Program-made: the position numbers and the translations under genes
DNA from: a virus
Taxonomy: Duplodnaviria > Heunggongvirae > Uroviricota > Caudoviricetes
Virus record (IMG/VR): IMGVR_UViG_2737471844_000004
Location: 1 to 13,401 of that record
Length of the DNA stretch: 13,401 bases
Reading direction: 5' to 3' (one strand)
In this document: positions 1 through 13,401 of the stretch, piece by piece
Position numbering within the stretch: position 1 is the stretch's first letter
Layout: each line of letters opens with the position of its first letter
The notes under the pieces: generated by a model
Told to the model about the DNA's origin: nothing
Databases searched by the model: none
What the model saw: only the letters and a program-made list of their open reading frames with translations

Positions 1-51
1 ATGTGTTGTAAAATCAGTCGAAGCCTAACAAGTGTGAATGACCTTTTAACC

Positions 52-762
52 ATGACGCAAGTGTTCAATGTTTACTGTGATGAGTCCTGCCATTTAGAAA
101 ATGATGGTCAAAAAGCAATGGTGCTCGGGGCTGTTTGGTGTCCTCTCAATAAGAGGTTTGGTATTGCTAATCGAATACGAGAGATAAAGCTCAAACATGG
201 CTTGGACCCACGTTTTGAAGTCAAATGGACTAAGGTTGGGGCTTCTAAAATTGAGTTTTATAAAGATTTGGTGGATTACTTCTTTGATGATGATGATCTT
301 CATTTCCGGGGATTGGTTATTCCTGACAAAACTCAGCTAAAGCATGATGATTTCGATCAAAGTCATGATGACTGGTACTATAAAATGTATTTTGTCATGT
401 TGAAAACTATTTTTGAGCCAGGAAGTCAATATAGAGTCTTTATTGATATAAAAGATACTCTTGGTCATGAGAAAATACTCAAGTTACATGATGTATTATG
501 TAACAATGCATATGATTTCTCTAGGAAAACAATTTCTAATATTAAGAGAATTAATTCTCATGAAGCTGAGCAATTGCAACTTGCTGATTTATTAATAGGT
601 GCCCTTAGTTATATGCATAGAGGTTTAAATGAAAGTAAGCCAAAACTTTTATTAATTAACAGGATCAGAGAAAGGAGCGGCTATAATCTAACCCAAAATA
701 CTTTGCTTCGAGAGTTAAAGTTTAATCTAATGATCTGGCAATCTAATGGGGGATGTCGATGA
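52..762 (+). CDS. DUF3800-like protein (family call from motif memory); start could instead be ATG at 1
   Basis: ORF 1..762; N-terminal MTQVFNVYCDES and later QLQLADLLIGALSY match the two motifs I recall for DUF3800 (N-terminal DES, C-terminal QxADxL). AT-rich. Stop TGA 760-762 overlaps next start (ATGA). Confidence 0.65.
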   Translation: MTQVFNVYCDESCHLENDGQKAMVLGAVWCPLNKRFGIANRIREIKLKHGLDPRFEVKWTKVGASKIEFYKDLVDYFFDDDDLHFRGLVIPDKTQLKHDDFDQSHDDWYYKMYFVMLKTIFEPGSQYRVFIDIKDTLGHEKILKLHDVLCNNAYDFSRKTISNIKRINSHEAEQLQLADLLIGALSYMHRGLNESKPKLLLINRIRERSGYNLTQNTLLRELKFNLMIWQSNGGCR

Positions 763-1244
763 GTCCGGTTTGGCTACCCGAGCAAATTTTATTAGAACAC
801 TATCAAGGTGAGTGGGAGGCCTACTTTGATAGTGTTTATCAAGCATTCCACCGCGATTTCGTTTTATCTAAACCAGTTTTTCGTGGCGTTCGATTAGGAT
901 TGAAACGTCATCCAGAATATGAAGGTAAATCAGCCACATTCTGGCATATGATTAGCACTGGAAATGTAGAAAGTGAGAGAGTGCCGGATATTCGGCGCTG
1001 CGAAAGAATTAGTTGGCCTAAGCCTGTTATAGATAATAGTACCGATACCTGTTTGAAAGTCTGGGCTGAGCCCAAAGGTAAAAATAGACGTATCCACATT
1101 TGGTTTGAGGATGAGGGATATCTGGTGGTTTTAGATGATAGAGGCGATTTTATGCTTCCATGGACAGCGTTTTATATTGAACATAACCATCAACGAAAGA
1201 AATACAATAAGAGATGGGAAAGACACAATCATAACGGTATTTGA
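759..1244 (+). CDS. Hypothetical protein, translationally coupled partner of the DUF3800-like gene
   Basis: ORF 753..1244; ATG at 759 has GGGGGA 6 nt upstream and overlaps the upstream stop. No recognisable motif. AT-rich like its partner. Confidence 0.6.
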   Translation: MSPVWLPEQILLEHYQGEWEAYFDSVYQAFHRDFVLSKPVFRGVRLGLKRHPEYEGKSATFWHMISTGNVESERVPDIRRCERISWPKPVIDNSTDTCLKVWAEPKGKNRRIHIWFEDEGYLVVLDDRGDFMLPWTAFYIEHNHQRKKYNKRWERHNHNGI

Positions 1245-1548
1245 TAGTAGGCTGGCCGCGCCCTTCCTAGAAGGACGGGGCCGTAACTCCTTCTACACTT
1301 ACGCTAGAAGCTGGTAGATGAGATAGCCTAACTTTAAGTAAACCTGCCTTGCGAGTCAATTAACATTAGAAAGCGATTATGTAAATGTGGATGCTGACTT
1401 GGCGAAAAATCCTTATAAATCAATAGATAGTAGGTTTATTTTCAACTCATAGTTTTTGACTATTAATAGTATGTTATCTATCTAAAAAAAGTTTTCTGTA
1501 TTCATCGCAAAATCAATACTGCTTTAGCATTGTAGTTAGCCATCAGTT

Positions 1549-1575
1549 GCAAAAAGCCTTACCCGTAGGCTTAAC
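1549..1575 (-). terminator. Possible intrinsic terminator downstream of the 59-aa gene
   Basis: On the minus strand AAGCCT-acgggta-AGGCTT followed by TTTGC; the stem is short (6 bp). Confidence 0.3.
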
Positions 1576-1611
1576 GTTTGGCTTGGCTGTAGTCTTACCG
1601 TAACGCTCCGC

Positions 1612-1791
1612 TCACCGTCGTGGCCTGTCCGGTTTCTTCCACTGATACGGCCTCACATCATCCTGCTGGTGGCGTTCCTGTTGCAGCACAACGGAAACAG
1701 GCGCTGAACACCTGTTAATTTTGCTTGCTGGTTGTTTGATTTCGGCAATGCTGCGGATCATCTCCAGCATATCGGCTTCGGTGATGGTCAT
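1612..1791 (-). CDS. Small hypothetical protein (59 aa), below the ORF-track cutoff
   Basis: Hand translation of the minus strand: MTITEADMLEMIRSIAEIKQPASKINRCSAPVSVVLQQERHQQDDVRPYQWKKPDRPRR, stop TGA (plus 1612-1614). SD AAGGTG 6 nt upstream of the ATG (plus 1789-1791). Confidence 0.4.
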   Translation of the reverse strand: MTITEADMLEMIRSIAEIKQPASKINRCSAPVSVVLQQERHQQDDVRPYQWKKPDRPRR

Positions 1792-1823
1792 GATTTACAC
1801 CTTAGGAAATCTTAGGGGGCTGG

Positions 1824-2080
1824 TTGACACTTTCCGGCTTAAGACCTTAACAAACCTTAACATCGCAGGTTGACACACTTGACACTTTTTCGCGAAAAAC
1901 CTTATCAAACCTTAGCATTTCTAAGCATGGCAACTTGACACTTTTCGCGATTTTTTTCGGCTTTTTGACGTGGTAAATCTGGCGCAAGGCCAGTAACGGC
2001 GGGGCTTACAGCGAGGTTGACACTTTTTCGCGTTCAGAGTGTAAAGTGTCAACCCGGCAAGCTGCTCAACTTGACACTTT
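1824..2080. repeat. Array of TTGACAC(TTTTTCGCG) motifs with a second ACCTTA(A/T)CAAACCTTA family; candidate packaging-recognition or protein-binding site
   Basis: TTGACAC at 1824, 1870, 1879, 1935, 2017 and 2071, an inverted copy GTGTCAA at 2046-2052, and a TTGACG variant at 1965. Three copies carry the extension TTTT(T)CGCG. CCTTAACAAACCTTAAC at 1844 and CCTTATCAAACCTTAGC at 1891. Spacing is irregular. Lies directly 3' of the TerS-like gene. Confidence 0.6.
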
Positions 2081-2086
2081 TTGATG

Positions 2087-2614
2087 TCATTGATGGTCTG
2101 ATTTTTCCCATTCAGCTAGGGCGTTTAGCCCGGCTTCACTCCATGATTCCAGTTCATCGGCATAATCACCTGCAACATAGCAGAGTTCGCAACGCAGCAT
2201 ACTAATTGCCAGCCTGGCATTACCTCGCAAATTGTATTGTTCAAAGTAATGCTGCCCGTCGCAATCCTCAAGGCAGATAGCACCATCATCAAGAAATTGC
2301 ACTTCCCAGCCTAATTCCCCGGCTGCATCCAGCACACGCTGCTGTATGCCCTCGTCCGTTGCTGGCGCAGGAATTTTACCGTCTCTGGCCTTAACTGCTT
2401 TCCAGAACTCGCCCCACGTCATTTCCAGCGTTCTCTCTGGCCACATTTCAGAAACTGTGTCTTTTCCCTGTGCTGGTGGGCTGTTCCGCTGCTCTGTCGC
2501 TTCCACATCGATTTTTTTACCGGACATGACCACTTCGCCTTTCTCGATCCAGTCGTAAACTGTCTGGCGGCTTACGCCTTTGTGTTTGGCATATTCTGCC
2601 TTACTCATCAGCAT
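2087..2614 (-). CDS. TerS-like / Nu1-like HTH DNA-binding protein with C-terminal Cys4 cluster; candidate packaging-redirecting (Rpp-like) protein
   Basis: ORF 2087..2614. N-terminus MSKAEYAKHKGVSRQTVYDWIEKG has the HTH pattern of small terminase N-termini. C-terminal C-x3-C-x23-C-x2-C (CLEDC ... CELC). Last gene of the operon, 4 nt after the upstream stop. Confidence 0.55.
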   Translation of the reverse strand: MLMSKAEYAKHKGVSRQTVYDWIEKGEVVMSGKKIDVEATEQRNSPPAQGKDTVSEMWPERTLEMTWGEFWKAVKARDGKIPAPATDEGIQQRVLDAAGELGWEVQFLDDGAICLEDCDGQHYFEQYNLRGNARLAISMLRCELCYVAGDYADELESWSEAGLNALAEWEKSDHQ

Positions 2615-2620
2615 TATGAC

Positions 2621-3292
2621 TCACCCTTCTTTTTCCAGTTGAGCCAGCCGCCCGGATATTTCTTCCAGTTTTTCCAGGGCTGGCTTGCAGGCCGCATCAA
2701 TAACGTCCCGGACCATTCCGGCAAGCTGTTCTTCTGCTGTCGGCGTTGTTACTTCCACGCCCGATGGTTTCCCGCCCTTATCCCAAACACCAAGCGGCAC
2801 GAGCGCAACGTGATCGATAAGAAATGGCGTACCCTCAATAAAAAAATTGTCCTCGCCCATTACATCAGGAACTTCTGCCCCACCTGAGGCACCACAAAAC
2901 ACAACCGACGGACTGGTGGATACCTCCCCTCGGGCTTTCTGGATGTAATCGATGATTTCCTGTCCGTAAATCCGGCATACGCCCCACACCTCGTCACCGC
3001 GAATATACGGCAACATGACGGTGCCAATAATGCGCGACCGTTCGCCCACGTCTTCAAGGGTTTTGCTTTCGGGATGGTCGATAATGACGGGTACTCCGGC
3101 GCAACGTTCCAGGAACTGCGGATTGAGATAAGTTTGCGGTGAACGCCAGACAAATTCTTTTTCTTCGGCGCGGTAGGCCATTCCGGTTCCTGTGATACGC
3201 AGGTTAACCAGCCACATGTTGGAAAACTGATAAGGCGACGGTAGCTGTCCGTCCCGAATCTGCTTCGCCGCCTCAATTTCTGTTAAAAGCAT
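2621..3292 (-). CDS. Hypothetical protein; weak prohead-protease-like pattern plus C-terminal coiled-coil-like tail
   Basis: ORF 2621..3292. VPVIIDHPES ... IIGTV ... GEVSTSPSVVF loosely recalls HK97-type prohead protease His and Ser regions; C-terminus PALEKLEEISGRLAQLEKEG looks scaffold-like. Weak RBS. Confidence 0.55.
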   Translation of the reverse strand: MLLTEIEAAKQIRDGQLPSPYQFSNMWLVNLRITGTGMAYRAEEKEFVWRSPQTYLNPQFLERCAGVPVIIDHPESKTLEDVGERSRIIGTVMLPYIRGDEVWGVCRIYGQEIIDYIQKARGEVSTSPSVVFCGASGGAEVPDVMGEDNFFIEGTPFLIDHVALVPLGVWDKGGKPSGVEVTTPTAEEQLAGMVRDVIDAACKPALEKLEEISGRLAQLEKEG

Positions 3293-3356
3293 AATGTTAT
3301 CCGGTTATAAGCAATAAGCCCCGCCAAATCCGGCAGGGCTGAACTCAGCACGTTTT

Positions 3357-3935
3357 TCATGCCCCCGCGAGGCTTGCAACGTTAATTTTGACCAGGCGAC
3401 GGGGAGGGATTTTGAAGGCGTTCAGCCAGACGTTCGGATCTCCCTGATATTCAGTAATACGACGACCAGCTTCATCCATTCTTACGGTTTTACCCAAATG
3501 GCCCGGCGTGTTTTCCACGGCCCACTGAGCACTTTCCTGAGCAGCCTTGTAAATCTGATCTTCCAGCACCGCCAGCGTTGCAGAATCTGAAACGGAACGA
3601 ATATCCACATCACTGAATTTTTTAGCCAGCTTCTGTGCGCCAATTAATGCACGTTTGCGGTAATCCATCGACTTTTCACCAGCAAACGGGGCCGGAGCGC
3701 GACGGCCCATATTGCTGTATGCGGAATCCGCTTTAGCCTGGGCTTCTGCCAGTGAGGATTCATCTTCGACTGACGCGACGATGTTTTGATTAGCGTTATC
3801 CTCTTTTATGAAATCCTGTGCGGGGATCGCATTCAGAATTTCGATAATCTCCTGCGGAGTGCTTCCCTGCGACTCTGACAGAGCGTTAACCACCTCCATC
3901 AGTTTTAATCGCAAATCTTCTTTGCTTGCTGGCAT
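3357..3935 (-). CDS. Hypothetical protein (192 aa from internal ATG), morphogenesis/packaging module by position
   Basis: ORF 3357..3944 opens at GTG; the ATG at plus 3933-3935 follows GAGAGGTGG at good spacing. No family recognised. Confidence 0.6.
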   Translation of the reverse strand: MPASKEDLRLKLMEVVNALSESQGSTPQEIIEILNAIPAQDFIKEDNANQNIVASVEDESSLAEAQAKADSAYSNMGRRAPAPFAGEKSMDYRKRALIGAQKLAKKFSDVDIRSVSDSATLAVLEDQIYKAAQESAQWAVENTPGHLGKTVRMDEAGRRITEYQGDPNVWLNAFKIPPRRLVKINVASLAGA

Positions 3936-3974
3936 TTTTACCACCTCTCTTTTTTCACCAAAAAATCACGACCA

Positions 3975-4148
3975 TCAGGCCGGACGTTCTACGGGATAAA
4001 GCGCCCGCTGCATTAAACGCCGGGCGACCTCATGAATGCTCGGAGCAATCCCCAGCGGAGAATTGCGGCGTTCCTCGTCCTGGATGCGCTGTAATGCTTC
4101 AATCTGATCACGAGCGAGTAAAACGGGTTTCACGCTGGCTTTTCTCAT
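3975..4148 (-). CDS. Small putative DNA-binding protein (RHH-like pattern), first gene of the module
   Basis: ORF 3975..4172; preferred start MRKASVK at 4148 with AGGAGA 7 nt upstream. Pattern beta-strand KPVLLARDQ followed by two helices. Confidence 0.5.
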   Translation of the reverse strand: MRKASVKPVLLARDQIEALQRIQDEERRNSPLGIAPSIHEVARRLMQRALYPVERPA

Positions 4149-4270
4149 AGTCATATCTCCTGAACAAAACAATGATTATGATTGCACAAACTGAAATGAC
4201 GATCTACATCATTGCAATTTATGAAACAATAACGCATGATGATCGCGTTCTTCCCATTGACTTCAATCAC

Positions 4271-4313
4271 CTGCAAAAATAAAACCCGCAACACTTCTGG
4301 CTGCGGGTTTTTT
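4271..4313. terminator. Bidirectional rho-independent terminator
   Basis: AACCCGCA-(11 nt loop)-TGCGGGTT at 4283-4309, flanked by an A-run (4271-4282) on one side and a T-run (4308-4313) on the other, so it has a U-tract on either strand. Confidence 0.7.
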
Positions 4314-4321
4314 ACTGGCAC

Positions 4322-4345
4322 AAAAAAGCCGGGAAAAATCCCGGC
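4322..4345 (-). terminator. Intrinsic terminator directly after the PerC-like gene
   Basis: GCCGGG-aaaaat-CCCGGC at 4328-4345, preceded on the plus strand by A6 (4322-4327), which gives a U-run on the minus-strand transcript. Sits 6 nt past the stop at 4351. Confidence 0.65.
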
Positions 4346-4350
4346 CTCCG

Positions 4351-4638
4351 TCACTGACTGCAATTTTTCGATCCAGGGTATTTCCTGAATGCCTTACCAT
4401 TGGGCTGATGTAATCCCATCCCGGCATGTGCCCGGCTGATGGTTTCGCGCATCTCCCCGAAATTATCCTGCCGTGCTGGTGGGCGTGCTGCCTTGCGGAT
4501 ACATTCCGCGCGACGTTTTGCCGCCTGTTCCCGTGCCTTGTCATCATTCGCCAGCATGATGACCTCAGCCCACCGCGCCGCCGCTCTCCGGTACAGACCA
4601 CGCGCTTCCAGTGCTTCCGCTTTGCTGTCGTGAATCAT
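4351..4638 (-). CDS. PerC-family-like transcriptional regulator
   Basis: ORF 4351..4638. N-terminus MIHDSKAEALEARGLYRRAAARWAEV and KRRAECIRKA match the PerC/Pch signature as I recall it. Start ATG overlaps the FinO-like stop (ATGA). Confidence 0.6.
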   Translation of the reverse strand: MIHDSKAEALEARGLYRRAAARWAEVIMLANDDKAREQAAKRRAECIRKAARPPARQDNFGEMRETISRAHAGMGLHQPNGKAFRKYPGSKNCSQ

Positions 4639-5231
4639 GCGCCTGTTTTCTCCTTTGCTGCCCGGCGCTGACGTTTGCGCTTCTCATTCAGCGCCACCAG
4701 CCGCGTTTCTGCGTCCTGTTGTTCCTGTGGTGTCACCTCGCCGCACGGCTGGCCTTTCAGGTCGTAGCGTACCCCACCAGCCATTAAGGCGCGGTAATAG
4801 CGCGGACACTGCGCATAAGATGCCAGCGTCGCACGTAATGCCCCTGGCCCGAATGCCAGCCCCCTGACGGCGAGATCCTGCATCAGGTCGTCGAATATCC
4901 CCACCTTAAGCGGCTTCGGTGCTTCCCGGCTGAATAATTCAGGCCACAACTCAGTGAGGCGGTTAATGCGCCTGCGGTTTTTTCGCTGCCGTTTGGTCAT
5001 ATGCCGCCACGGTGTCGCCCCTGTGGGCTTCTGCTGCGCTTTCTGGTTACCGGGCATCACTTTATGCGCCGATGTGGTTTTATCCTGCTGCTGCTGCTGC
5101 TGCTGCTGCTGCGCCGCCTGCGTCGTTTTCTGCGGCGTGCCGTAAATGCCTTTCGGTTTTCTGTTAATAGTCAGCTTAGTCATGCTTTGCCCCATCGTTT
5201 TTACTGATTGTTTCATATCCGGTACTTTCAT
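4635..5231 (-). CDS. FinO/ProQ-domain RNA-binding protein with N-terminal poly-Q tract; start codon uncertain
   Basis: ORF 4635..5231. LWPELFSREAPKPLKVGIFDDLMQDL ... YDLKGQPCGEVTPQEQQDAETRL parallels the ProQ N-terminal/FinO domain. Q9 run encoded by the repeat at 5086-5112. No clear SD at the first ATG; internal ATGs are possible starts. Confidence 0.7.
   Translation of the reverse strand: MKVPDMKQSVKTMGQSMTKLTINRKPKGIYGTPQKTTQAAQQQQQQQQQDKTTSAHKVMPGNQKAQQKPTGATPWRHMTKRQRKNRRRINRLTELWPELFSREAPKPLKVGIFDDLMQDLAVRGLAFGPGALRATLASYAQCPRYYRALMAGGVRYDLKGQPCGEVTPQEQQDAETRLVALNEKRKRQRRAAKEKTGA
5086..5112. repeat. Perfect (CTG)9 / (CAG)9 trinucleotide repeat, in frame within the FinO-like CDS
   Basis: Plus strand reads CTG nine times from 5086 to 5112. 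Confidence 0.95.
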
Positions 5232-5236
5232 CTTCT

Positions 5237-5522
5237 GGGTAGAGGGGTAGACGGCGGGTAGATAACAAAAAATAGTCCTCTACCCACTTAACTTAATGAA
5301 AAAAAACAACTTTCACACATTAGGTAGAGGGGTAGACCGTAAAATAGAAAAGTTTGAAACTTACTTTCTTACAATCTGTGTTTTCCTCTCGCTGTATAAA
5401 AAGTTTTTTGAGCGGGGATGTTGTCTACCCCTCTACCCACTTCTCTGAAAGCCTTGTGCTACGAGGGATTCAGCGGGTAGACAATAAAAAATCACCATCT
5501 ACCCTGTGTCTACCCATCTACC
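5237..5522. repeat. Iteron cluster flanking AT-rich spacers; candidate replication origin
   Basis: About 12 copies of GGTAGA(N)/TCTACC in both orientations (5237-5264, 5277-5287, 5321-5338, 5423-5440, 5473-5483, 5497-5522), including the inverted pair AGGTAGAGGGGTAGAC / GTCTACCCCTCTACCC around an AT-rich core. Immediately 3' of the primase-helicase gene. Confidence 0.65.
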
Positions 5523-5539
5523 TGTTACGGGTATTACTC

Positions 5540-7288
5540 TTATAAAAATTCCTCGGTTCTCTCCGTTTGTATAACGTTGGTTTGTATTCGTCCTTTAAAA
5601 CCTCTTGTCAGGTATTCAGCCCCATATTCTCTTGCTGCTGACTTCATGGCCTTACCAAAATCACCGACACTTAATATTTCTTCTTCCCCCATATACTCCA
5701 TAAAGGCGAGATATAGTCTGTACAGGCTTGTACGCGGATTAAGATCAGTTAATCTCTTACCGCCTCCCATCATCATCCCATGCGGTTCATCAAGAAATGC
5801 AAGCGCCGCACATAACCCAATGACAGGATCAGTTTCCTGTTTTATTTTCAGAGCTTCGGCACCGTCGCGCTGCTCCAACAATAATTCCCGTGCTTTTTCT
5901 GGATCGGAAAAGTTAGCCAGTAATCGACGAATAATGACAGGTATTTCCGCCGCTATCTTTTGCGGTAACTCTTTATCCTTTTCGGTCTCCCTTACAATAT
6001 TATCGAACCGAAAAATTACACGTCGACGCGCAACGCCTCCGGCCCGTTCGGTGAATGTCATCGGCACGTTATTTGTTGCCAGCACGACGGACCTGATAAT
6101 TGTTGTGAAACGCTTTTCATATTTCGGGTTAATTTCAACTGGATCTCCACCCGTTATTTTTTTGATGCCGGATCCTTCACCTGTATATTTCGGCTGGTCT
6201 GCCAGGACAATAAGACGACTTCCGACAACCTGCGCACGCCCGCCAGCATCATCAAGCGATGTCATTTCAGCGCTTACCGTGTTCTGTTTCCCTGCCAGAA
6301 GGGTGGCTATGTGCGTGATTGTGCTCTTGCCGCTCCCGCCTTCCCCTGTGGCCTCAATAAACATCTGCCAGTCGTACCGGTTCGCCATAATCATGTACAG
6401 CGCGGCGCATATACGCATCATCTTTCGCGGGTCTTTTCCTGCGGCGTGATCAAGCCATTTATGAAAGTTTGGCGCGTTGTCGCGGATGTTCTCCCCTGGT
6501 ACTGGTGGCGTGTACTCAATGCCGTTATGCGTGGTGATCCAGTTATCCGGCGAGTGCGGGGAAAATTCGCCAGTTTTCATGTCAAGCACGCCATTAGAGA
6601 ACGGCAATAAATCACCTGACGGTTCCCCCATTGGCCTGGCCATAACTTTTAAAGCATCCACAGCATTACTTATTGCTCTCCGACTAAACGATGTTCCGTT
6701 TTCTTCGTAAATAGCCACCATTTCACGACTAAGATCCAGTGTGCTTACCGGAACCCAAAAATCATCGCGCCAGACGTGGACAACCTCACTCTCCTGATTC
6801 ATTGCTACATCCTGAAATCGTTCAGCTAAAAGTTTTGCCCTTTGGCTGTCCGCCATTCTGGAAAGAGATATTTTGTGTTTTTTCTCGGTCCTTCCTGACA
6901 GAATTTCTCCGCGCTCAGCCTGTTCGCGGATCCGTTGCAGGTAGTCGCGCCAGTTCTCCGGTTCCTGGTCGGTGATGCCTTTGTATAATTTCGCCTCCTG
7001 TACGCCAGCCAGCGCCAGCTTTTCAGCGATAGTATTGATCTGGATTGGCTCTATCTCCCCCGCGATATAGACACGCGCAAAACGGCGTTTCTCGTCAATA
7101 ATGCGGATATTCGCCAGGTCTGCCAGTTGCTTTGGCCCCAGGTAAACAGGAGGCACGTTATCGCCGTGTTTTCGTCCTTCACTTTCAATCCAGTGTTGAG
7201 CATGGGCGTAAGCATCCGTCCCGGCAAAAATGATTACCTCAGTGAATTTATCCTTCGGCTGATATTTTAGACTCGGTGCGTTTTTCAC
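5540..7288 (-). CDS. Primase / SF3 (D5-like) helicase replication initiator, P4 alpha-like
   Basis: ORF 5540..7288, 582 aa. Walker A GEGGSGKST, Walker B-like LIVLAD, motif C VLATNN. GTG start overlaps upstream stop (GTGA) with GGGAGG 6 nt upstream. Confidence 0.85.
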   Translation of the reverse strand: MKNAPSLKYQPKDKFTEVIIFAGTDAYAHAQHWIESEGRKHGDNVPPVYLGPKQLADLANIRIIDEKRRFARVYIAGEIEPIQINTIAEKLALAGVQEAKLYKGITDQEPENWRDYLQRIREQAERGEILSGRTEKKHKISLSRMADSQRAKLLAERFQDVAMNQESEVVHVWRDDFWVPVSTLDLSREMVAIYEENGTSFSRRAISNAVDALKVMARPMGEPSGDLLPFSNGVLDMKTGEFSPHSPDNWITTHNGIEYTPPVPGENIRDNAPNFHKWLDHAAGKDPRKMMRICAALYMIMANRYDWQMFIEATGEGGSGKSTITHIATLLAGKQNTVSAEMTSLDDAGGRAQVVGSRLIVLADQPKYTGEGSGIKKITGGDPVEINPKYEKRFTTIIRSVVLATNNVPMTFTERAGGVARRRVIFRFDNIVRETEKDKELPQKIAAEIPVIIRRLLANFSDPEKARELLLEQRDGAEALKIKQETDPVIGLCAALAFLDEPHGMMMGGGKRLTDLNPRTSLYRLYLAFMEYMGEEEILSVGDFGKAMKSAAREYGAEYLTRGFKGRIQTNVIQTERTEEFL

Positions 7289-7575
7289 TTCTTACCTCCC
7301 GCAACCAACATTGCCCGGATTTTTTTTATATTCGTGGCTGCACGTCTCGCCACTGCCTGTTGTTTGTTTTCCACCAGAATAAAATCACGATCAAACTGAC
7401 GGCGCGGCATTACGCAGTCATATTCGTAAGCCTCACGGCGGTAGGTGATATTGCCTGGCGTAACGTGACGAATAACCACCCGTCCCCCGCGTCTGGTGTC
7501 CCGGAAAATATCACCGGGGCGGATTTCAGGCCGAGAGAGGCCGCTGGCAGTAAAGCCAGAATTTTTCTTTTTCAT
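7285..7575 (-). CDS. Hypothetical basic protein (96 aa)
   Basis: ORF 7285..7575; ATG 4 nt after the upstream stop; coupled to the primase gene. Confidence 0.6.
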   Translation of the reverse strand: MKKKNSGFTASGLSRPEIRPGDIFRDTRRGGRVVIRHVTPGNITYRREAYEYDCVMPRRQFDRDFILVENKQQAVARRAATNIKKIRAMLVAGGKK

Positions 7576-7579
7576 GGTT

Positions 7580-7780
7580 TTATTTTCCTGTCAGCAGTTC
7601 CGGTTTTATTTCCGCACGAATACAAAGTTCAGAAAAAAATTCAGGAGAACCAACAATCTCATTACTTTTCAGTCGGCATTGTGATTTCACTTTCCCTTTA
7701 TCCAGGTAAACCAGTACGCGTCCGGTGAAATCATCTGGCACATTAAGCACTACGGGTACATGCACTTCATGATTATGCAT
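7580..7780 (-). CDS. Small hypothetical protein (66 aa), FTGR-motif family
   Basis: ORF 7580..7780; GGAGGATG SD; start ATGCATAA overlaps upstream stop. Shares DDFTGRVLVYLDKGKV ... PEF motif with both halves of the 7999..8364 protein. Confidence 0.6.
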   Translation of the reverse strand: MHNHEVHVPVVLNVPDDFTGRVLVYLDKGKVKSQCRLKSNEIVGSPEFFSELCIRAEIKPELLTGK

Positions 7781-8006
7781 GGCTTACATCCTCCGTGAAT
7801 TTTCTTCTGTAACGCGCCTCTGCCACATATTCCGCATAGTCCGACGCAATACTAAGAATCATTTCACCCTCTGACTTGTAGCCACTGGTATTGATAAGAA
7901 AATATGCAGCTTTCATCATGTCAGCAACGCTCAACAATGCGCCCGATGTATCTTCCGGTGCGCCATCAAATTCCCGTTTCAGGGAATTAAAACGATCATC
8001 ACGCAT
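7773..8006 (-). CDS. Small hypothetical protein (77 aa)
   Basis: ORF 7773..8006; G-rich SD; start ATGCGTGA overlaps upstream stop by 8 nt. Confidence 0.6.
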   Translation of the reverse strand: MRDDRFNSLKREFDGAPEDTSGALLSVADMMKAAYFLINTSGYKSEGEMILSIASDYAEYVAEARYRRKFTEDVSHA

Positions 8007-8364
8007 GTTTACCCCCCTGAATGACCTGATAACCGCAACTGGTCAGCAACTCGATAAATTCCGGCAGTGTGCCGAAACAGCAATCATCACGCAGCCGTTC
8101 GCAGGATACCTCGACGCCGTTTTCGTAGTGACTCACCATACGTCCGGTAAAATGCAGATCATCATCGTGATGGCTCGTTGACGGCTTAATCAGTCGCGCA
8201 CGTTCCGCCAGTTCCAGCAATGCTTCAACGCTTCCGGCAATTGCACCATCCGGCAGGTGGTAATTACGCACTATGCGCCCGTTCTCCACATGGACCAGTA
8301 GCTGCCCGGTAAATTTCTCGTCAAACTGAATGCTGTTAAGGTCAGAAATTGACAGGTTATGCAT
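7999..8364 (-). CDS. Hypothetical protein with internal tandem duplication of an FTG(Q/R)-x-LV-x-x-E-N-G motif domain
   Basis: ORF 7999..8382; preferred start MHNLSIS at 8364 with AGGAGG upstream, overlapping the upstream stop (ATGCATAA). FTGQLLVHVENGRIV and FTGRMVSHYENGVEV repeat within the protein. Confidence 0.6.
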   Translation of the reverse strand: MHNLSISDLNSIQFDEKFTGQLLVHVENGRIVRNYHLPDGAIAGSVEALLELAERARLIKPSTSHHDDDLHFTGRMVSHYENGVEVSCERLRDDCCFGTLPEFIELLTSCGYQVIQGGKHA

Positions 8365-8581
8365 GGTGCACCTCCTGCACATCAGCCATGATAATTTTTC
8401 CGGCCTTATCCAGTGCCTGATCGGCTTTTAGCTGCACAAATGCTAAATAATGGGAGATGCATTCTGATTCTCTGGCTGCGTGTTTATGCGCCACACCAGC
8501 GATAGCAGAAATCTCAATAAGTGAATCCATCAGCGTTTTGATAGCGTCTACCGCTGCATCAGGCCATGTTGCATTACACAT
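8357..8581 (-). CDS. Small hypothetical protein (74 aa)
   Basis: ORF 8357..8581; AGGAGGTGG SD; start ATGTGTAA overlaps upstream stop by 8 nt. Confidence 0.6.
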   Translation of the reverse strand: MCNATWPDAAVDAIKTLMDSLIEISAIAGVAHKHAARESECISHYLAFVQLKADQALDKAGKIIMADVQEVHHA

Positions 8582-8939
8582 GTTCCACCTCCTGGCGAAT
8601 ACGGGCGGCGAATACCATCACGCAGCCATCAGGAGATTGCTGACGTGCTTCCTGTTCGCTGGTGGCCTCGATGTGAATTACGCGCGGTTGTGCCGTGCTC
8701 AGGGCGATAAAACGCCAGATAAAATTGTTCTCGCATTTCTGAATAAACAGCGTGTTTTCTTCGCGCCCTTTCCATGTTGCCGAGATATAGCCCATGTCAT
8801 TGAGCATCTCGCAGGCATCAACCAGCGTATCAGCAGCTACGTGTACAGTGTTTTTACCGTCAGCTATGCAATCACGGTGCACCGCCAGGAAGGTGTATAT
8901 AAATTTAGGGTGAGTTTGGGTATGCTGTGTTCCAGCCAT
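8574..8939 (-). CDS. Hypothetical protein (121 aa), first gene of the leftward operon
   Basis: Internal ATG (plus 8937-8939) of the long minus-strand open frame, with GAGGT 7 nt upstream and a promoter/operator region immediately 5'. Natural-looking sequence MAGTQHTQTHPKFIYTF... Confidence 0.6.
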   Translation of the reverse strand: MAGTQHTQTHPKFIYTFLAVHRDCIADGKNTVHVAADTLVDACEMLNDMGYISATWKGREENTLFIQKCENNFIWRFIALSTAQPRVIHIEATSEQEARQQSPDGCVMVFAARIRQEVEHV

Positions 8940-9028
8940 AATCGTTACCTCATTTAACGGTTTGGTTAGACGCCCCGCTACTGCCGCAAACAGTTCGGGG
9001 CGTTGTCGTTTACATCCTCTTACTGAGG

Positions 9029-9104
9029 TGTGATTTAAATTAAATTTAACTGAATCACAGGTCAAGTATTTTTTGTGATTCTTTTTTGTGTATACTGAAT
9101 CACA
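9029..9104. promoter_or_regulatory. Divergent promoter region with two TGTGATT-N17-AATCACA operator-like palindromes
   Basis: Palindromes at 9029-9059 and 9074-9104. Plus-strand -10-like TATACT at 9091-9096 lies inside the second; minus-strand -35 TTGACC (9060-9065) and -10 TAATTT (9037-9042) overlap the first. Confidence 0.55.
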
Positions 9105-9126
9105 TCTTTTGTTTAGGAGAATGCAC

Positions 9127-9432
9127 ATGGCAAAAAACACTATCAACGACAAATCAAAACAGATTTCAATTCGTATCCCACATGATGCTTTTGAAGGCAT
9201 GGAATCCGTAAAACTGGACGGTGAAAGCAACGCCGGATTCATAGTAACCGCCATGCGCGGTGAGATCGCCCGCCGCCAGGCAGAAGGAAGCGGAGAAAAT
9301 CCCCTGGTTTCTTCGCTCGATGCGCTGGCGCAGGTGGAAAAAATCGGAGTCAAAGCTGCCGAGGAGATCGGGCAGCTCGTCACCGTCGCACGTGAAGAAC
9401 TCCAGCGCCGCAAGGCCAAAGAATCAGAATAA
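9127..9432 (+). CDS. Small putative DNA-binding regulator (RHH-like); candidate island repressor
   Basis: ORF 9088..9432; ATG at 9127 with AGGAGA 6 nt upstream. Pattern ISIRIP (beta), HDAFEGMESVKL, NAGFIVTAMRGEIARR (helices). The only plus-strand gene in the backbone. Confidence 0.65.
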   Translation: MAKNTINDKSKQISIRIPHDAFEGMESVKLDGESNAGFIVTAMRGEIARRQAEGSGENPLVSSLDALAQVEKIGVKAAEEIGQLVTVAREELQRRKAKESE

Positions 9433-9667
9433 TAACTATCATCGCCGTGGTGTGAGGAACTCCGGCGCATTGCTTTACAGGTACACAGAATGACCAACAA
9501 AGAATCAACCAATACACCATCACCGGCACGGAAAAGACGGCGCAGAAAGATAGAGCACGAATCAGAAAGATTCGCGCCATGTGCTTTTGCCCTTGAGCAA
9601 TTCCTTAAAGAGTACAGGCGCACAAAAATGGGATCGCATACCTGGAAAACATCGCGGCATGGCAATG

Positions 9668-10106
9668 TTAAAGAGCATGAATAGCCCACCAGCAAGCCAG
9701 CACACTGATCACATTGCCCACCAGCCGCAAATCTGGCATTGTTGGCAATGTGTTCAAGTGTGTAGCTTTCCCACTGGTGGCCCTCTGCAGTCGCCTTTGT
9801 TTTATCCAGAACGAAATCAGACATCAGATTGATCAGCACCTGGTGACCTGACAAAATCGCATCAGTCACGCCACCAGCAAAATTTTTTGCTTTCCGGACA
9901 GCGTGGCCAACGGCATTTTGCAGCGAAATATTCTGCATTTCTGGCGTGCTGTAGTAACGGTGATCAGTGCCTTCACTCTGTGCGACCACAACGCTATAAT
10001 CTGCCTCGTAGACAGTAAGCAATATGGCGCAGTAGGCTATTCGTTCACAAAGGCGCTCCGGCAACGGGGCGCTTTCTCTTTTTGTAACGGTCAGAGCGTT
10101 ACACAT
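9668..10106 (-). CDS. Hypothetical ORF with well-defined 5' end but unresolved 3' end; possibly frameshifted
   Basis: ATG at 10106 overlaps the AntA-like stop by 8 nt (ATGTGTAA) and starts MCNA like the gene at 8581. First ~130 aa look protein-like, then Cys/Ser-rich junk; no in-frame stop until 8574. An alternate frame ends at plus 9668. Confidence 0.3.
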
Positions 10107-10899
10107 GGCTGTTTTCCTCCATGCGACGGGCTAACCAACGCTGCGAAAGGCGAATTAATTCAGCTTTCCGCTGGTGGTAGTCCTGGCCTAACTCAATCAG
10201 CGTGATATTGCTCTGCTCAAGGTAAGAAAGGTGCTCAAGCTGCAACACGCTCATGTGGTCGCGTGGTTCACCTGTAATGCCGTTCGCCTGCGCCCACTGT
10301 TTTGCAGTCATGCCACCCAGCACGATACGCGCCAGCATGTTCGCTTCCGTGGTGTAGTGGTGCTGGAGTGTGTTTTTACCCAGTTCAGCCCGGTACGCCT
10401 CCAGCGCGGCACACATTGGCTTAAAGTAGCTGGCAACTGTGATACGGGCTTTCAGTTCCCGGCGTAACGCTGCGGAACGTACAGGCGCAACCTTGTGTAG
10501 CTCCTCCTCGCATTTGATAAAGTACTGACGAACGGCGCGCCCCTGTTCGGTGCGCTCGACCATCGCCAGTTCTTTCGCCATGTTGATAGTGCTCAGGTAG
10601 TCGTGCTCTACACGTTGGCGAGATTTTGCGCTCACCGGATTGGGGGAGGTCAAATTTTCTACGAATTCAAAATCCACGCCCTTTTTAAATCCGTACTCAT
10701 CAATGCGTCCTTTAATCCAAGTTGTGAAATCACGCTTCACACCCAGCGCCTTATGCAACGCTCTGGCGCTAACAATATTGGTTTCACGCCCGCCAATAAC
10801 GCCGGAAATAACCGGGATAATTTCGCCGAAATTTTGTTGGCTCTGGTTTTCAGGCCGAACGAAGCCCTGCCCCTGTACGGGCGTTTTTCGCAGTTTCAT
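10099..10899 (-). CDS. AntA/AntB-type phage antirepressor-like protein
   Basis: ORF 10099..10899. IPVISGVIGGRETNIVSARALHKALGVKRDFTTWIKGRIDEYGF ... MAKELAMVERTEQGRAVRQYFIKCEEEL matches the AntA N-terminal pattern I recall. SD AGGAG 5 nt upstream. Confidence 0.6.
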   Translation of the reverse strand: MKLRKTPVQGQGFVRPENQSQQNFGEIIPVISGVIGGRETNIVSARALHKALGVKRDFTTWIKGRIDEYGFKKGVDFEFVENLTSPNPVSAKSRQRVEHDYLSTINMAKELAMVERTEQGRAVRQYFIKCEEELHKVAPVRSAALRRELKARITVASYFKPMCAALEAYRAELGKNTLQHHYTTEANMLARIVLGGMTAKQWAQANGITGEPRDHMSVLQLEHLSYLEQSNITLIELGQDYHQRKAELIRLSQRWLARRMEENSHV

Positions 10900-10977
10900 A
10901 AAAACTCCTGCTATCGAATTAAGTTACTTTTTATTTGCTGGTGGATAGCTGGGGCTTCTGGCCCCGTAGCTGTTTTA

Positions 10978-11196
10978 TCAGGCTGATGTGTTTCGGCGTT
11001 CTTCCAGCCAGCGATTAACCTCTACCGCATCGAATGCAGTGCTTTTCTCACCCAGTTTGATGGGCTTAGGCATCTTCCCGCTACGCACCCAACGATCGAG
11101 CGTTGATAAGCTGGTACCCAGCAATTCAGCCAGGCGATAGCGGCGGATATAGCCAGTTGCAGGGATTGCGGTTTGAAGTATTGGTTGGTTTTTCAT
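10978..11196 (-). CDS. alpA: AlpA-family DNA-binding regulator (excisionase-like)
   Basis: ORF 10978..11289; probable start MKNQPIL at 11196. RRYRLAELLGTSLSTLDRWVRSGKMPKPIKLG ... VEVNRWLEERR is the typical AlpA signature. Confidence 0.8.
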   Translation of the reverse strand: MKNQPILQTAIPATGYIRRYRLAELLGTSLSTLDRWVRSGKMPKPIKLGEKSTAFDAVEVNRWLEERRNTSA

Positions 11197-11308
11197 ATGC
11201 CCCATTACCTTTGTTGTTGGTTTGTGATTCGTAATAGGGGCATTAAATAACAAATGAAATGATGTGTGTGTGAGTTTTAGAAAAAACACTGTGACTTTTC
11301 TTATTTCA

Positions 11309-12091
11309 CTATCTAAAACGCTCTCGCCAGCTTTTCCAAGTGTTCTTATCTGGTTGTGGGATTACAATGCCTTTTTGAGCACCTATTTGTGCAATTTTTT
11401 TATTTAACTTGTTAGGCGGCAAAGATATTATCTCATTGTCTGTTAATCCGGCAATTCTTAATAATCCATATATCATTTTAAATTGATGTATTGTTAATCT
11501 TGGTAACTTGTGATTTTCTTTTTTTATAGTGTTGTTTATGGAGTAAATTGGAAATCCATTTGTTATTGATTTATAAAGGTTGTCAATGTGCTCTCTGGTT
11601 ATTAATAATGAATCAGGTGTAATCTTAATGTTGCCGCTTGTTTTTGCATGGCATGAAAAAATAAATGTGGGATTCGCAGTGCGACGTGAAAGCGGTATGG
11701 ATGTATTCATAGAGATAGTTTTGTTTCTTACTATAGTCTCTTGAATATCAAAAACTCCAGAAACCTTTGCCTCAAAAATAACACCATTTTCTTTTATTTC
11801 ATCACTATATTCATGAATAATTATGCCAAGAGAGGAAATTTCTTTTTTGATGAGAAAAGAAATAAAATCAATATAGTCTTCATCCTTTGGCCATGTAAAA
11901 TCACGATAACCAAAATACCCCTCACAGTAAGCATTTTTTATTTTTGTGGCAAAATTAATTCTGTTAATATCCTGCCAATGCCATAAATCATCTATCTCAC
12001 ATTCTAAAATTTGAGCTGCTCTATCTAAAGAGCAGAATTCTAATGGAGGTAATTGTTTTTTTTGCCATATTGTTTCATTAATATTTGTCAT
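11309..12091 (-). CDS. Hypothetical protein (260 aa), AT-rich orphan cargo gene between int and alpA
   Basis: ORF 11309..12091. Markedly AT-rich with Asn/Ile/Lys-rich protein composition, unlike the flanking int and alpA. No motif recognised; weak RBS. Confidence 0.6.
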   Translation of the reverse strand: MTNINETIWQKKQLPPLEFCSLDRAAQILECEIDDLWHWQDINRINFATKIKNAYCEGYFGYRDFTWPKDEDYIDFISFLIKKEISSLGIIIHEYSDEIKENGVIFEAKVSGVFDIQETIVRNKTISMNTSIPLSRRTANPTFIFSCHAKTSGNIKITPDSLLITREHIDNLYKSITNGFPIYSINNTIKKENHKLPRLTIHQFKMIYGLLRIAGLTDNEIISLPPNKLNKKIAQIGAQKGIVIPQPDKNTWKSWRERFR

Positions 12092-12147
12092 GATTGCACT
12101 ACCGTTATGAAAAAATATATTCGTTAATGAATTAGCCTTAATGTCTA

Positions 12148-13401
12148 TTATTTATTAGATTGCGTGATGTCAGAACATATCATGTTTTCTAAATTCACCA
12201 GCAAATCAGTCCACTGTGCCAGCGCCGCTTTGCGCTCATCAAAATATTGATGGCGGTTATAAATGCCCTCTACGCCTTTTATGCGGTGGTTAAGGCATCG
12301 TTCAGCAACGATCGGGTCAACTCCCAATGCTGCTAAATGTGTTCGTGCTGTTCGCCGGAAGTCGTGAATTGTAAAGTTGGGGACGTTCGGCATTTCTGCT
12401 CTGACTTTTGCCAATGCAACAGGAAGGGTGCTTTCCTGGATGTGAGGGATCATTCTGTGCTGCATTTTTCTGGCAGGTAATACCCATGCGCTATTGCATG
12501 AAAATGTGTGCAATTCTCGCAACCATTCTATGGTCGCTGGTGGTAATGGTATGTCGATAGCATCGCCATTTTTAGTTCGTTGTTCTGGTAGATGCCAAAT
12601 CGCGCCATCTAAGTCGAATTCATCCCACCTGGCGGCGCATAACTCCATTTTTCTGACACACAATGCTAAGAGCAACTTAAAGGTTAATTCGTTCTGGCGG
12701 CTGAATCCTTTGGCTTTACGCATGGCCTGAAAAAATTGGATTAATTCGTCACGGTTCAGCCAGCGATCACGAGATAATTCTTTCCCACCAGCATCTGATA
12801 CTTCAAAAGCTGAGCAGGGGTTAACCTCCAAAGCAAGGCGTTTAATACCGTAGTCAAATATTCGACGTGTCCACCGAAGAACGTCAGTAGCAATTGTTGG
12901 AGCGCCTCTATCAACAATGCTTTTAAGCATGGCATCAATATGGCGTGGTTTTACATCTTCAACCTTCATGTGGCCTATGGCAGGATTTATGTCTTTATCA
13001 ATGCGCCTGCGGAGAATATCTGGGTGTTTCCATCGGGGAAGTATTTGCCGTGCAAAGTATTCGGCGGCAAGTTCAGAAACATGCAGCGCGTTTTTTTCAG
13101 CTTCTATTTTTGCCAGTGCTTCGGCTTTACGCTGCTGTTTTTCTGCGGCTACGTCATATCCCAAAGCAACTCGTGCGGAAAGTTCTTTTGCCAGTTCCCT
13201 GGCTTTTGATAACGATAATTCAGAATATGAACCAATAAGCATGGCACGAGATTTTCCTGCCAGTTTATATCGAAACCGCCATGTCGGGGATCTATCCACC
13301 TCTCTATACCGGAGATATAGCCCACCACCATCAGCACGACCTTCGAAATGTTCTCCGGCTTTTATCCATGCGCGGATCTGCATATCTGTGAGTTTTGGCA
13401 T
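12148..13401 (-). CDS. int: P4-type tyrosine integrase (site-specific recombinase)
   Basis: ORF 12148..13401, 417 aa. N-terminus MPKLTDMQIRAWIKAGEH...DGGGLYLRY and C-terminal HDFRRTARTHLAALG...ERCLNH...IYNRHQY carry the R...HxxR...Y catalytic signature. ATG sits exactly at the window edge. Confidence 0.95.
   Translation of the reverse strand: MPKLTDMQIRAWIKAGEHFEGRADGGGLYLRYREVDRSPTWRFRYKLAGKSRAMLIGSYSELSLSKARELAKELSARVALGYDVAAEKQQRKAEALAKIEAEKNALHVSELAAEYFARQILPRWKHPDILRRRIDKDINPAIGHMKVEDVKPRHIDAMLKSIVDRGAPTIATDVLRWTRRIFDYGIKRLALEVNPCSAFEVSDAGGKELSRDRWLNRDELIQFFQAMRKAKGFSRQNELTFKLLLALCVRKMELCAARWDEFDLDGAIWHLPEQRTKNGDAIDIPLPPATIEWLRELHTFSCNSAWVLPARKMQHRMIPHIQESTLPVALAKVRAEMPNVPNFTIHDFRRTARTHLAALGVDPIVAERCLNHRIKGVEGIYNRHQYFDERKAALAQWTDLLVNLENMICSDITQSNK

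Follow-up and report, generated by a model that had tools for sequence, protein, structure and literature searches.

We analysed a 13,401-nucleotide (nt) stretch of viral DNA (Caudoviricetes; IMG/VR record IMGVR_UViG_2737471844_000004, positions 1 to 13,401; hereafter the window) and found that one end of it carries a three-part cargo module, which comprises a DUF3800 protein with a predicted RNase H2-like nuclease fold (gene A), a partner protein (gene B), and a small structured RNA with a predicted promoter of its own. The trio travels together across bacterial phyla, phages P1 and P7, and a Bifidobacterium phage, and is found in defence neighbourhoods. The reading that we favour, at a probability of about 0.45, is that of an anti-phage module resembling a toxin-antitoxin system, in which the RNA would restrain the nuclease proteins and the orphan copies of the RNA in phages would be mimics of it. 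New here, and absent from the databases and literature searched, are the small RNA that accompanies the two genes, the orphan copies of this RNA in phages, and the embedding of A-B in type I restriction-modification (R-M) loci. A preliminary description of this DNA had proposed a novel and unnamed defence or accessory operon of two genes ending at position 1244. Its accessory nature and the plausibility of a defence role are borne out below, whereas the pair turns out to have been named before and not to be complete, since a small RNA gene and its promoter follow at ~1249-1359 on the (-) strand.

A conserved small RNA gene follows the protein-coding pair

The nucleotide similarity of the window to distant loci extends beyond the stop codon of gene B, and alignment of the sequence that follows B in all loci revealed a strongly conserved element corresponding to a small RNA of 65-85 nt. 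The RNA of the window starts with 5'-AUCUCAUCUACC... and is predicted to form a 5' hairpin whose 3' side contains GAAGGAG, the GAG being paired with a 5' CUC; the linker UUACG follows, and then a GC-rich 3' hairpin that abuts the B stop codon. The consensus across loci reads 5'-AGCUCAUC-UACC-AUGUG-GUAGA-AGGAG-UWACG, followed by a GC-rich hairpin and CAGCnUUUU, in which the run of U residues after the 3' hairpin resembles a terminator.

The predicted promoter of the window copy, on the (-) strand, consists of a -35 element TTGACT (1359-1354), a 17-nt spacer, and a -10 element TAAAGT (1336-1331), with transcription predicted to start at A1324; a promoter scan placed it at 17359-17331 (-) of the corresponding Escherichia coli A17 locus (L001). 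The same geometry, a -35 TTGAnT, a 17-nt spacer, and a -10 nAnnnT, recurs in 80 distinct loci, where the -35 positions are T in 71, T in 57 and G in 48, the -10 positions are A in 59 and T in 74, and an A lies seven nt downstream of the -10 element in 79 of the 80.

The two hairpins are supported by covariation. In an alignment of 57 sequences, 96.9% of cells pair, compared with 87.1% in shuffles and 40-56% in slid controls, and 11 of the 15 pairs vary on both sides, a value that none of 500 shuffles reached. RNAalifold returned the same two hairpins with a CUC/GAG extension that partly buries GGAG. G.U pairs are frequent, one pair being U.G in 43 of the 57 sequences and another G.U in 17; on the strand that encodes A and B these would be C.A mismatches, which places the RNA on the opposite one. 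When folded, the copy in the window gives the expected structure (-28.6 kcal/mol, z -2.1).

A covariance model built from the short-variant sequences of other loci only detected the held-out long variant of the window at 1236-1324 (-), with 51.1 bits and an E-value of 1.4e-12. Covariance searches also recovered the RNA in phage P1 (L002 4646-4726, (-) strand), directly 3' of rlfB, where the P1 record does not annotate it and where the predicted transcript would run from AF234172 52977 to 52906. Further matches came from phage Bbif-1 of Bifidobacterium (E 3e-14) and from the contig of a gut phage that encodes an A protein of only 33% identity (E 1e-6). All 78 genome loci with sequence available at this place have a single match, always right after B, and the model gave no further match in the ~1 Mb of those loci. 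Rfam 15, which includes the DUF3800-I and DUF3800-IX families, returned no family at E<=1 on L001 and 13 other loci, and with a 96-nt window at E<=10 only trivial terminator-like matches; nor did the hairpin sequence appear in any paper in the literature searched.

The orientation of the RNA gene bears on how it might act. In nearly all loci it is convergent to B, its 3' hairpin commonly overlaps the B stop codon or the 3' end of the coding sequence, and a scan for terminators on the (+) strand gave none between B and the RNA gene. These features would suit a cis-antisense regulator, similar to those of type I systems, that sets the levels of A and B without binding protein. We consider such a role unlikely. 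The RNA is near-invariant across phyla, unpaired positions included, it is better conserved than A or B, and it is still recognisable where A has fallen to 33% identity, whereas antisense pairing needs no such conservation. In two loci, L245 and L288, it lies downstream of B in the same direction, behind a TTGACC-17-TATAAT promoter of its own, and thus antisense overlap with the A-B mRNA is not essential; the orphan copies described below, moreover, are distant from any A-B mRNA. On the evidence of L245 and L288, the small RNA probably acts in trans. A pairing of its invariant 5' CUCAUC with GAUGAG at the D-E codons of A or at the start of B was also considered, and rejected because the D-E codons vary synonymously (GATGAA 32, GACGAA 20, GACGAG 13, GATGAG 13) and the sequence of the A-B junction is not conserved.

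Gene A is a predicted RNase H-like protein and gene B its partner

Gene A had been described as starting at base 1 of the window. The methionine at position 52 is almost certainly the translation start instead, since the RefSeq coding sequence begins there, the alignment to the PADLOC model starts at residue 18 of the longer open reading frame (ORF), and homologues are 231-238 aa long. A promoter-like TTTACA-18-TAAAAT, a consensus match only, lies at L001 15968-15997, equivalent to window positions -33 to -4.

The assignment of the first gene to DUF3800 proved correct: it matches Pfam PF12686 with an E-value of 2.8e-12 and 48 bits (cut-off 21) over 148 of the 149 profile positions, and contains the DES and QLADL motifs, in agreement with the definition of the family by an N-terminal DE(S) and a C-terminal QxxD (PMC7736814). 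Among 120 homologues, D10-E11-S12 and Q176...D179 are invariant, as are five acidic residues, D10, E11, D132, D135 and D179, which are candidates for the four catalytic carboxylates (DEDD) of type-2 RNases H. The structure model of gene A shows a type-2 RNase H-like fold, as earlier predicted for other DUF3800 proteins (PMC7736814, PMC10910872), and the suggestion that DES forms an acidic centre fits both this model and the invariance of D10 and E11. A search of the gene A profile against Protein Data Bank (PDB) sequences gave noise only. The protein differs from the type-2 RNases H (RNase HII, H2A and HIII) in its extra helices and in a sequence identity of only 10-13%. In a true RNase HII, the DE pair is followed by a GRG motif that recognises the RNA-DNA junction; in gene A the residues after the DE pair read SCH (YCDESCHLE), and it is therefore not to be filed as an RNase HII orthologue. 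On sequence and model, then, gene A is RNase H-like, and probably a metal-dependent nuclease.

Gene B, which the ATGA overlap indicates to be translationally coupled to A, had been described as having no recognisable domain, and this stands: it has no Pfam match, and a scan of 148 family members gave only scattered noise. Its profile found no relative of solved structure among PDB sequences. The predicted structure is a confident single domain (pLDDT 93.8), for which a Foldseek search of the PDB returned nothing significant; the best hit, HigB1 (E 0.4), is a lead only, and a kinship of B with the BECR-fold RNase toxins (RelE, colicin D, CdiA-CT) is likewise no more than a lead. The family comprises 1,858 clusters at 50% identity, is nearly always free-standing, and measures ~160 aa; the single natural fusion, P0348, joins B to the C-terminus of A. 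Both A (236 aa) and B (161 aa) model as soluble globular proteins.

The pair is a named defence candidate and is carried by phages P1 and P7

Contrary to the preliminary view that no named system is built on this pair, the two adjacent and overlapping genes match, near end-to-end, the PADLOC candidate models PDC-M04A (gene A, E 8.3e-98) and PDC-M04B (gene B, E 8.8e-74). Searches with tblastn identified RlfA and RlfB of phage P1 and RapA and RapB of phage P7 as homologues with the gene order kept, the P1 proteins being 55% (A, E 3e-70) and 37% (B, E 5e-26) identical to those of the window; P1 RlfA and RlfB themselves match the PDC-M04 models. Thus P1 and P7 share with the window the protein pair, its order, and a location in a low-GC variable cargo region, and P1 also shares the small RNA. 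The P1 copy differs in following repL and having a C1 operator, whereas the window copy sits on a chromosomal satellite-like island. PADLOC defines the candidate by its two proteins, to which the RNA and the link with type I R-M are added here. The phage record MT837866.1 was also considered and set aside as unrelated to the window, its A homologue being only 33% identical.

In P1, rlfA and rlfB follow immediately on repL/oriL and are annotated as 'possibly associated with lytic replication'. Together with the RNase H fold of A and the proximity of the window pair to a repeat array and a TerS-like gene, this might suggest an accessory role in replication, with A processing primers or R-loops at an origin and the RNA serving as a primer or a copy-number regulator in the manner of ColE1 RNA I/II. 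We regard this as highly improbable: the P1 annotation is based on position only; most homologues are chromosomal, in R-M operons with no replication genes nearby; and the P1 genes were non-essential for lytic growth in a CRISPR interference screen (PMC10695390) and occupy a variable stretch of low GC content, which has been lost or exchanged in P1-like elements (PMC6906374, PMC9603915).

A C1 operator lies immediately upstream of P1 rlfA, which suggests expression during lytic growth. The pair also resides on P7, Bbif-1 and satellite-like islands, and DUF3800 domains have been linked with type VII retrons (PMC7736814). A mobile element might accordingly use the module as an offensive or counter-defence tool against the nucleic acids of hosts or rivals, such as RNA-DNA hybrids of the kind of retron multicopy single-stranded DNA (msDNA), or the replication intermediates of helper phages. 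Roughly half of the loci sampled, however, are chromosomal and share an operon with hsdMS, which is typical of host defence, and PADLOC picked the pair as a defence candidate; we therefore hold this explanation to be improbable.

Gene A and gene B co-occur across phyla and are often embedded in type I R-M loci

A profile scan with gene B, restricted to one genome per species, returned 80 loci, 79 of which have room for A. They span Gamma-, Beta-, Alpha- and Deltaproteobacteria, Nitrospirae, Chloroflexi, Chlorobi, Planctomycetes, Bacteroidetes, Spirochaetes, Actinobacteria and others. As had been anticipated for a genuine gene pair, 78 of the 79 have A directly upstream of B and co-oriented with it, an adjacency that, coming from different species, is more than chance. 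The one exception, L087, a candidate for B without A, was discounted as a decayed copy in which hsdR reaches a truncated B and the RNA is intact. A is somewhat better conserved than B, identities ranging from 51 to 82% for A and from 46 to 74% for B.

We clustered the neighbouring ORFs and ran Pfam on cluster representatives. The expected proximity to defence genes was found, in the form of type I and type III R-M, DRT1, Mrr and a DUF1156 methylase. Type I R-M subunits occur within four ORFs of the pair in 41 of 78 loci, with all three subunits present in 22, and the usual order is hsdR-hsdM-hsdS-A-B or hsdM-hsdS-A-B-hsdR. In loci with hsdS next to A on the upstream side, no more than 17 nt separate the two, and a 4-nt overlap is frequent. 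YhcG nuclease and Fic genes are further neighbours, and in Yersinia the pair stands at the end of a Zn-ribbon/Toprim primase island. The type I R-M locus of Pseudomonas aeruginosa contains a split DRT1 (L003 3433-7300), the reverse-transcriptase/nitrilase system being present as two overlapping ORFs between hsdS and A-B; 4-nt overlaps join hsdS, the DRT1 ORFs and A-B, and a Mrr gene adjoins the locus.

PrrC is arranged likewise in EcoprrI. The A-B pair of roughly half the sampled species resembles the PrrC and RloC modules of type I R-M loci in being located within or directly after hsdR-hsdM-hsdS, co-oriented and often with the 4-nt hsdS overlap; the proteins are unrelated, however, and the copies of the window and of P1 have no R-M genes adjacent. 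The frequent embedding in type I R-M suggests a second line of defence that is coupled to restriction.

Orphan copies of the RNA are common in phages

A DNA pattern for the 5' hairpin, which samples one hairpin sequence variant only, matched at least 120 contigs in each of the viral and metagenome collections. We called an RNA an orphan when tblastn with three A and 150 B queries gave nothing at an E-value of 1e-4. Of 80 viral contigs fetched, 74 have room for B; A and B stand beside the RNA in four of these, and the RNA is an orphan in the other 70. Among metagenome contigs, 70 have room, and B is in the expected position in 37 (30 of them also with A), leaving 33 orphans. The orphan RNAs retain both hairpins with abundant compensatory change, and their contexts in viral contigs are varied, some being found by tRNA genes and some in tandem pairs. 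Two copies, in tandem or close to each other, occur in viral contigs L109, L166, L167, L172, L125, L171 and L132/L165, and the RNA abuts tRNA genes in L129, L157, L135 and L149. In metagenome contigs L231, L235, L263, L284 and L295 the RNA lies beside a fragment of A with no B detected; these may be decayed modules or an A-only variant.

The orphan copies also bear on whether the module might be a selfish addiction cassette, stabilising the island, the R-M operon or the P1 plasmid by post-segregational killing with no part in phage resistance. Its toxin-antitoxin-like architecture, with a small RNA that has its own predicted promoter, its presence on plasmid-prophages and islands, and a strong horizontal transfer that leaves at least 46% identity across phyla would all agree with this. 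A conflict with phages better fits the position in R-M operons, the other defence neighbours, and the orphans in lytic-type phages, and we give pure addiction little credence; the addiction and anti-phage roles are, in any case, compatible with each other.

A model of an RNA-restrained anti-phage module

In the anti-phage module that we favour, a constitutive and presumably short-lived RNA would bind A, B, or both, and keep the nuclease silent. Infection, through loss of host transcription, decay of the RNA, or a phage factor, would lower or displace the RNA. Gene A, being more conserved than B and having an intact acidic centre, is the probable effector, and would cut nucleic acid, possibly the RNA of RNA-DNA hybrids; B may cut or bind RNA. 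Either the replication of the phage or the cell itself would then stop, and the orphan RNAs of phages, as mimics of the antitoxin, would serve as antidotes. On the island, the module would protect both host and satellite from competing phages. A bolder form of this model, that the RNA is the off-switch of a two-protein effector, that the module represents a new and widespread class of RNA-controlled abortive infection, and that the phage orphans, many of them inside or beside tRNA gene clusters, were captured by phages as broad-spectrum antidotes, is possible, although we hold it to be rather doubtful.

The closest analogies are type III toxin-antitoxin and abortive infection (Abi) systems, ToxIN and AbiF-RCd22. 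These likewise place a nuclease-type protein beside a small structured RNA with its own terminator, occur in a defence context, and include a known case of mimicry by an RNA that a phage carries. The associated RNA RCd22 neutralises the AbiF toxin, and phage PhiTE escapes ToxIN through an RNA antitoxin mimic (pseudo-ToxI). They use one protein, ToxN or Abi_2, whereas there are two here, an RNase H-like DUF3800 protein and B. Classical type III systems have an upstream repeat array; here a single RNA lies downstream, usually convergent, and would neutralise its partners by analogy. Lacking the upstream array, the module falls outside the type III definition, and it also falls outside type I, because its toxin would not be a small hydrophobic peptide (A is 236 aa and B 161 aa) and the antisense overlap is dispensable.

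Several points weigh against the model. The promoter and the ends of the small RNA are predictions, and the copies of the window and of other enterobacteria have no good U tract past the 3' hairpin. The RNA is single-copy and downstream, at variance with the upstream arrays of classical type III. The orphan RNAs may serve partners that tblastn missed, or have a function of their own. The C1 operator by rlfA implies that the P1 pair may be repressed in lysogens, which would be unusual for a prophage defence gene. The literature searched contained no experimental test of PDC-M04 or rlfAB, and we found no experiment showing toxicity, RNA-protein binding or phage resistance for any member of the family.

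The RNA belongs to a wider setting. Weinberg et al. (2017, PMC5737381) described DUF3800 RNA motifs I-XI, small structured RNAs that lie beside DUF3800 genes in either orientation, several of which have terminators and whose function is unknown. The RNA of the present module differs in having no match in Rfam 15 and in a DUF3800 subfamily that comes with protein B, and it constitutes a new RNA family, reaching from Proteobacteria to a Bifidobacterium phage. It raises the testable idea that the eleven DUF3800-associated structured RNAs (PMC5737381) may be RNA antitoxins of RNase H-like nucleases; were the off-switch model true, it would account for the association of DUF3800 with many unrelated structured RNAs, and phage P1 would carry the whole module. 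If the orphans are mimics, RNA-based counter-defence would be widespread in phages. PDC-M04 and P1 rlfAB, which have had no assigned function since the annotation of the P1 genome, thereby become a testable three-part system.

The module is cargo at a variable site of a satellite-like island

All large ORFs of the backbone lie on the (-) strand of the window. From the integrase (12148-13401) they continue through AlpA, an AntA-type antirepressor, and a D5_N/DUF5906 primase to ProQ/FinO and PerC homologues, a DUF2213/protease-like gene, and a TerS-like gene. Genes A and B, as the preliminary description had seen, are AT-rich (+) strand ORFs opposite this backbone, with a GC content of 0.32-0.41 across 1-1400 compared with ~0.45-0.61 in the backbone, and they overlap by ATGA (A stop TGA 760-762, B start ATG 759-761). 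The coordinates of the module are given in Table 1.

Table 1. Features of the cargo module and its surroundings in the window
Feature	Position	Strand	Basis or remark
5' leader of gene A	1..51	+	ORF extension, probably untranslated
Gene A, 236-aa DUF3800 protein, RlfA/PDC-M04A family	52..762	+	
Gene B, 161-aa protein, RlfB/PDC-M04B family, no Pfam family	759..1244	+	
Small RNA gene, long variant of ~76 nt	1249..1324	-	Covariance model, covariation, fold
Predicted sigma-70-type promoter of the small RNA	1331..1359	-	Promoter scan and conserved geometry
AT-rich spacer closing the cargo module	1360..1549	.	Similarity to pair-less islands starts at ~1550

The whole element lies between dinD and yicC in E. 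coli A17 and is bounded by a perfect direct repeat of 21 nt, GTTACTCAATATTCTGAATCT, of which one copy is found at the 3' end of yicC and the second precedes gene A by 230 nt. These repeats enclose A-B, and the pair, which had been suspected of lying possibly outside the island in the flanking chromosome, is therefore cargo within an element bounded by attachment (att) sites. The element has the features by which satellite-type islands are recognised, namely att repeats, an integrase, AlpA, a D5_N/DUF5906 primase, a TerS-like protein and DUF2213, and by its gene content is a phage-satellite-like island, similar to phage-inducible chromosomal islands (PICI-like), with A-B as accessory cargo at its distal end.

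Of 5,426 complete E. coli genomes, only 3 contain window bases 1-1600. In pair-less E. coli genomes and related islands, similarity to the window begins only at ~1550, and the same distal end of related islands holds other genes or nothing; on this comparison, the distal end of the island family is a variable cargo site. Empty or differently filled sites in related islands, together with the att-bounded element, also agree with the earlier suggestion that the pair is separately acquired accessory cargo. The island of E. coli ARS-C101 has two different hypothetical genes in the cargo position (L096 2543-4302), the larger of which matches the PADLOC candidate PDC-S02 (E 3e-10).

Some further features of the island deserve mention. 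At least five copies of (C)AACTTGACACTTTTT(CGCG) form an array at window ~1824-2085 (L001 17875-18081), between a 59-aa gene and the TerS-like gene, which may represent iterons or the packaging site of the island. The replication module is swapped between the window, which has a 582-aa D5_N/DUF5906 primase (5540-7288), and A17, which has a RepA-family helicase (L001 22372-23784); despite this swapped replication gene, the two are 100% identical across 1-1600. Strain cq9 combines a primase with a fragment of RepA. A possible second accessory hotspot is marked by another AT-rich cargo gene of 260 aa (11309-12091, (-) strand, GC ~0.30; conserved as WP_001529476.1 in E. coli A17), which is located between the integrase and AlpA and for which Pfam, PHROG and PADLOC gave no match. 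The ProQ/FinO-family protein (4635-5231, (-) strand) contains a run of nine glutamines and has an N-terminal half rich in lysine and arginine. A 510-aa ORF at 8574-10106 (-) is probably spurious, as RefSeq shows only small genes in its A17 counterpart, among them those for an Icd-like protein and a YlcI/YnfO-family protein. In A17, dinD (L001 14756-15580), which borders the left att repeat, is annotated as a pseudogene with an internal stop.

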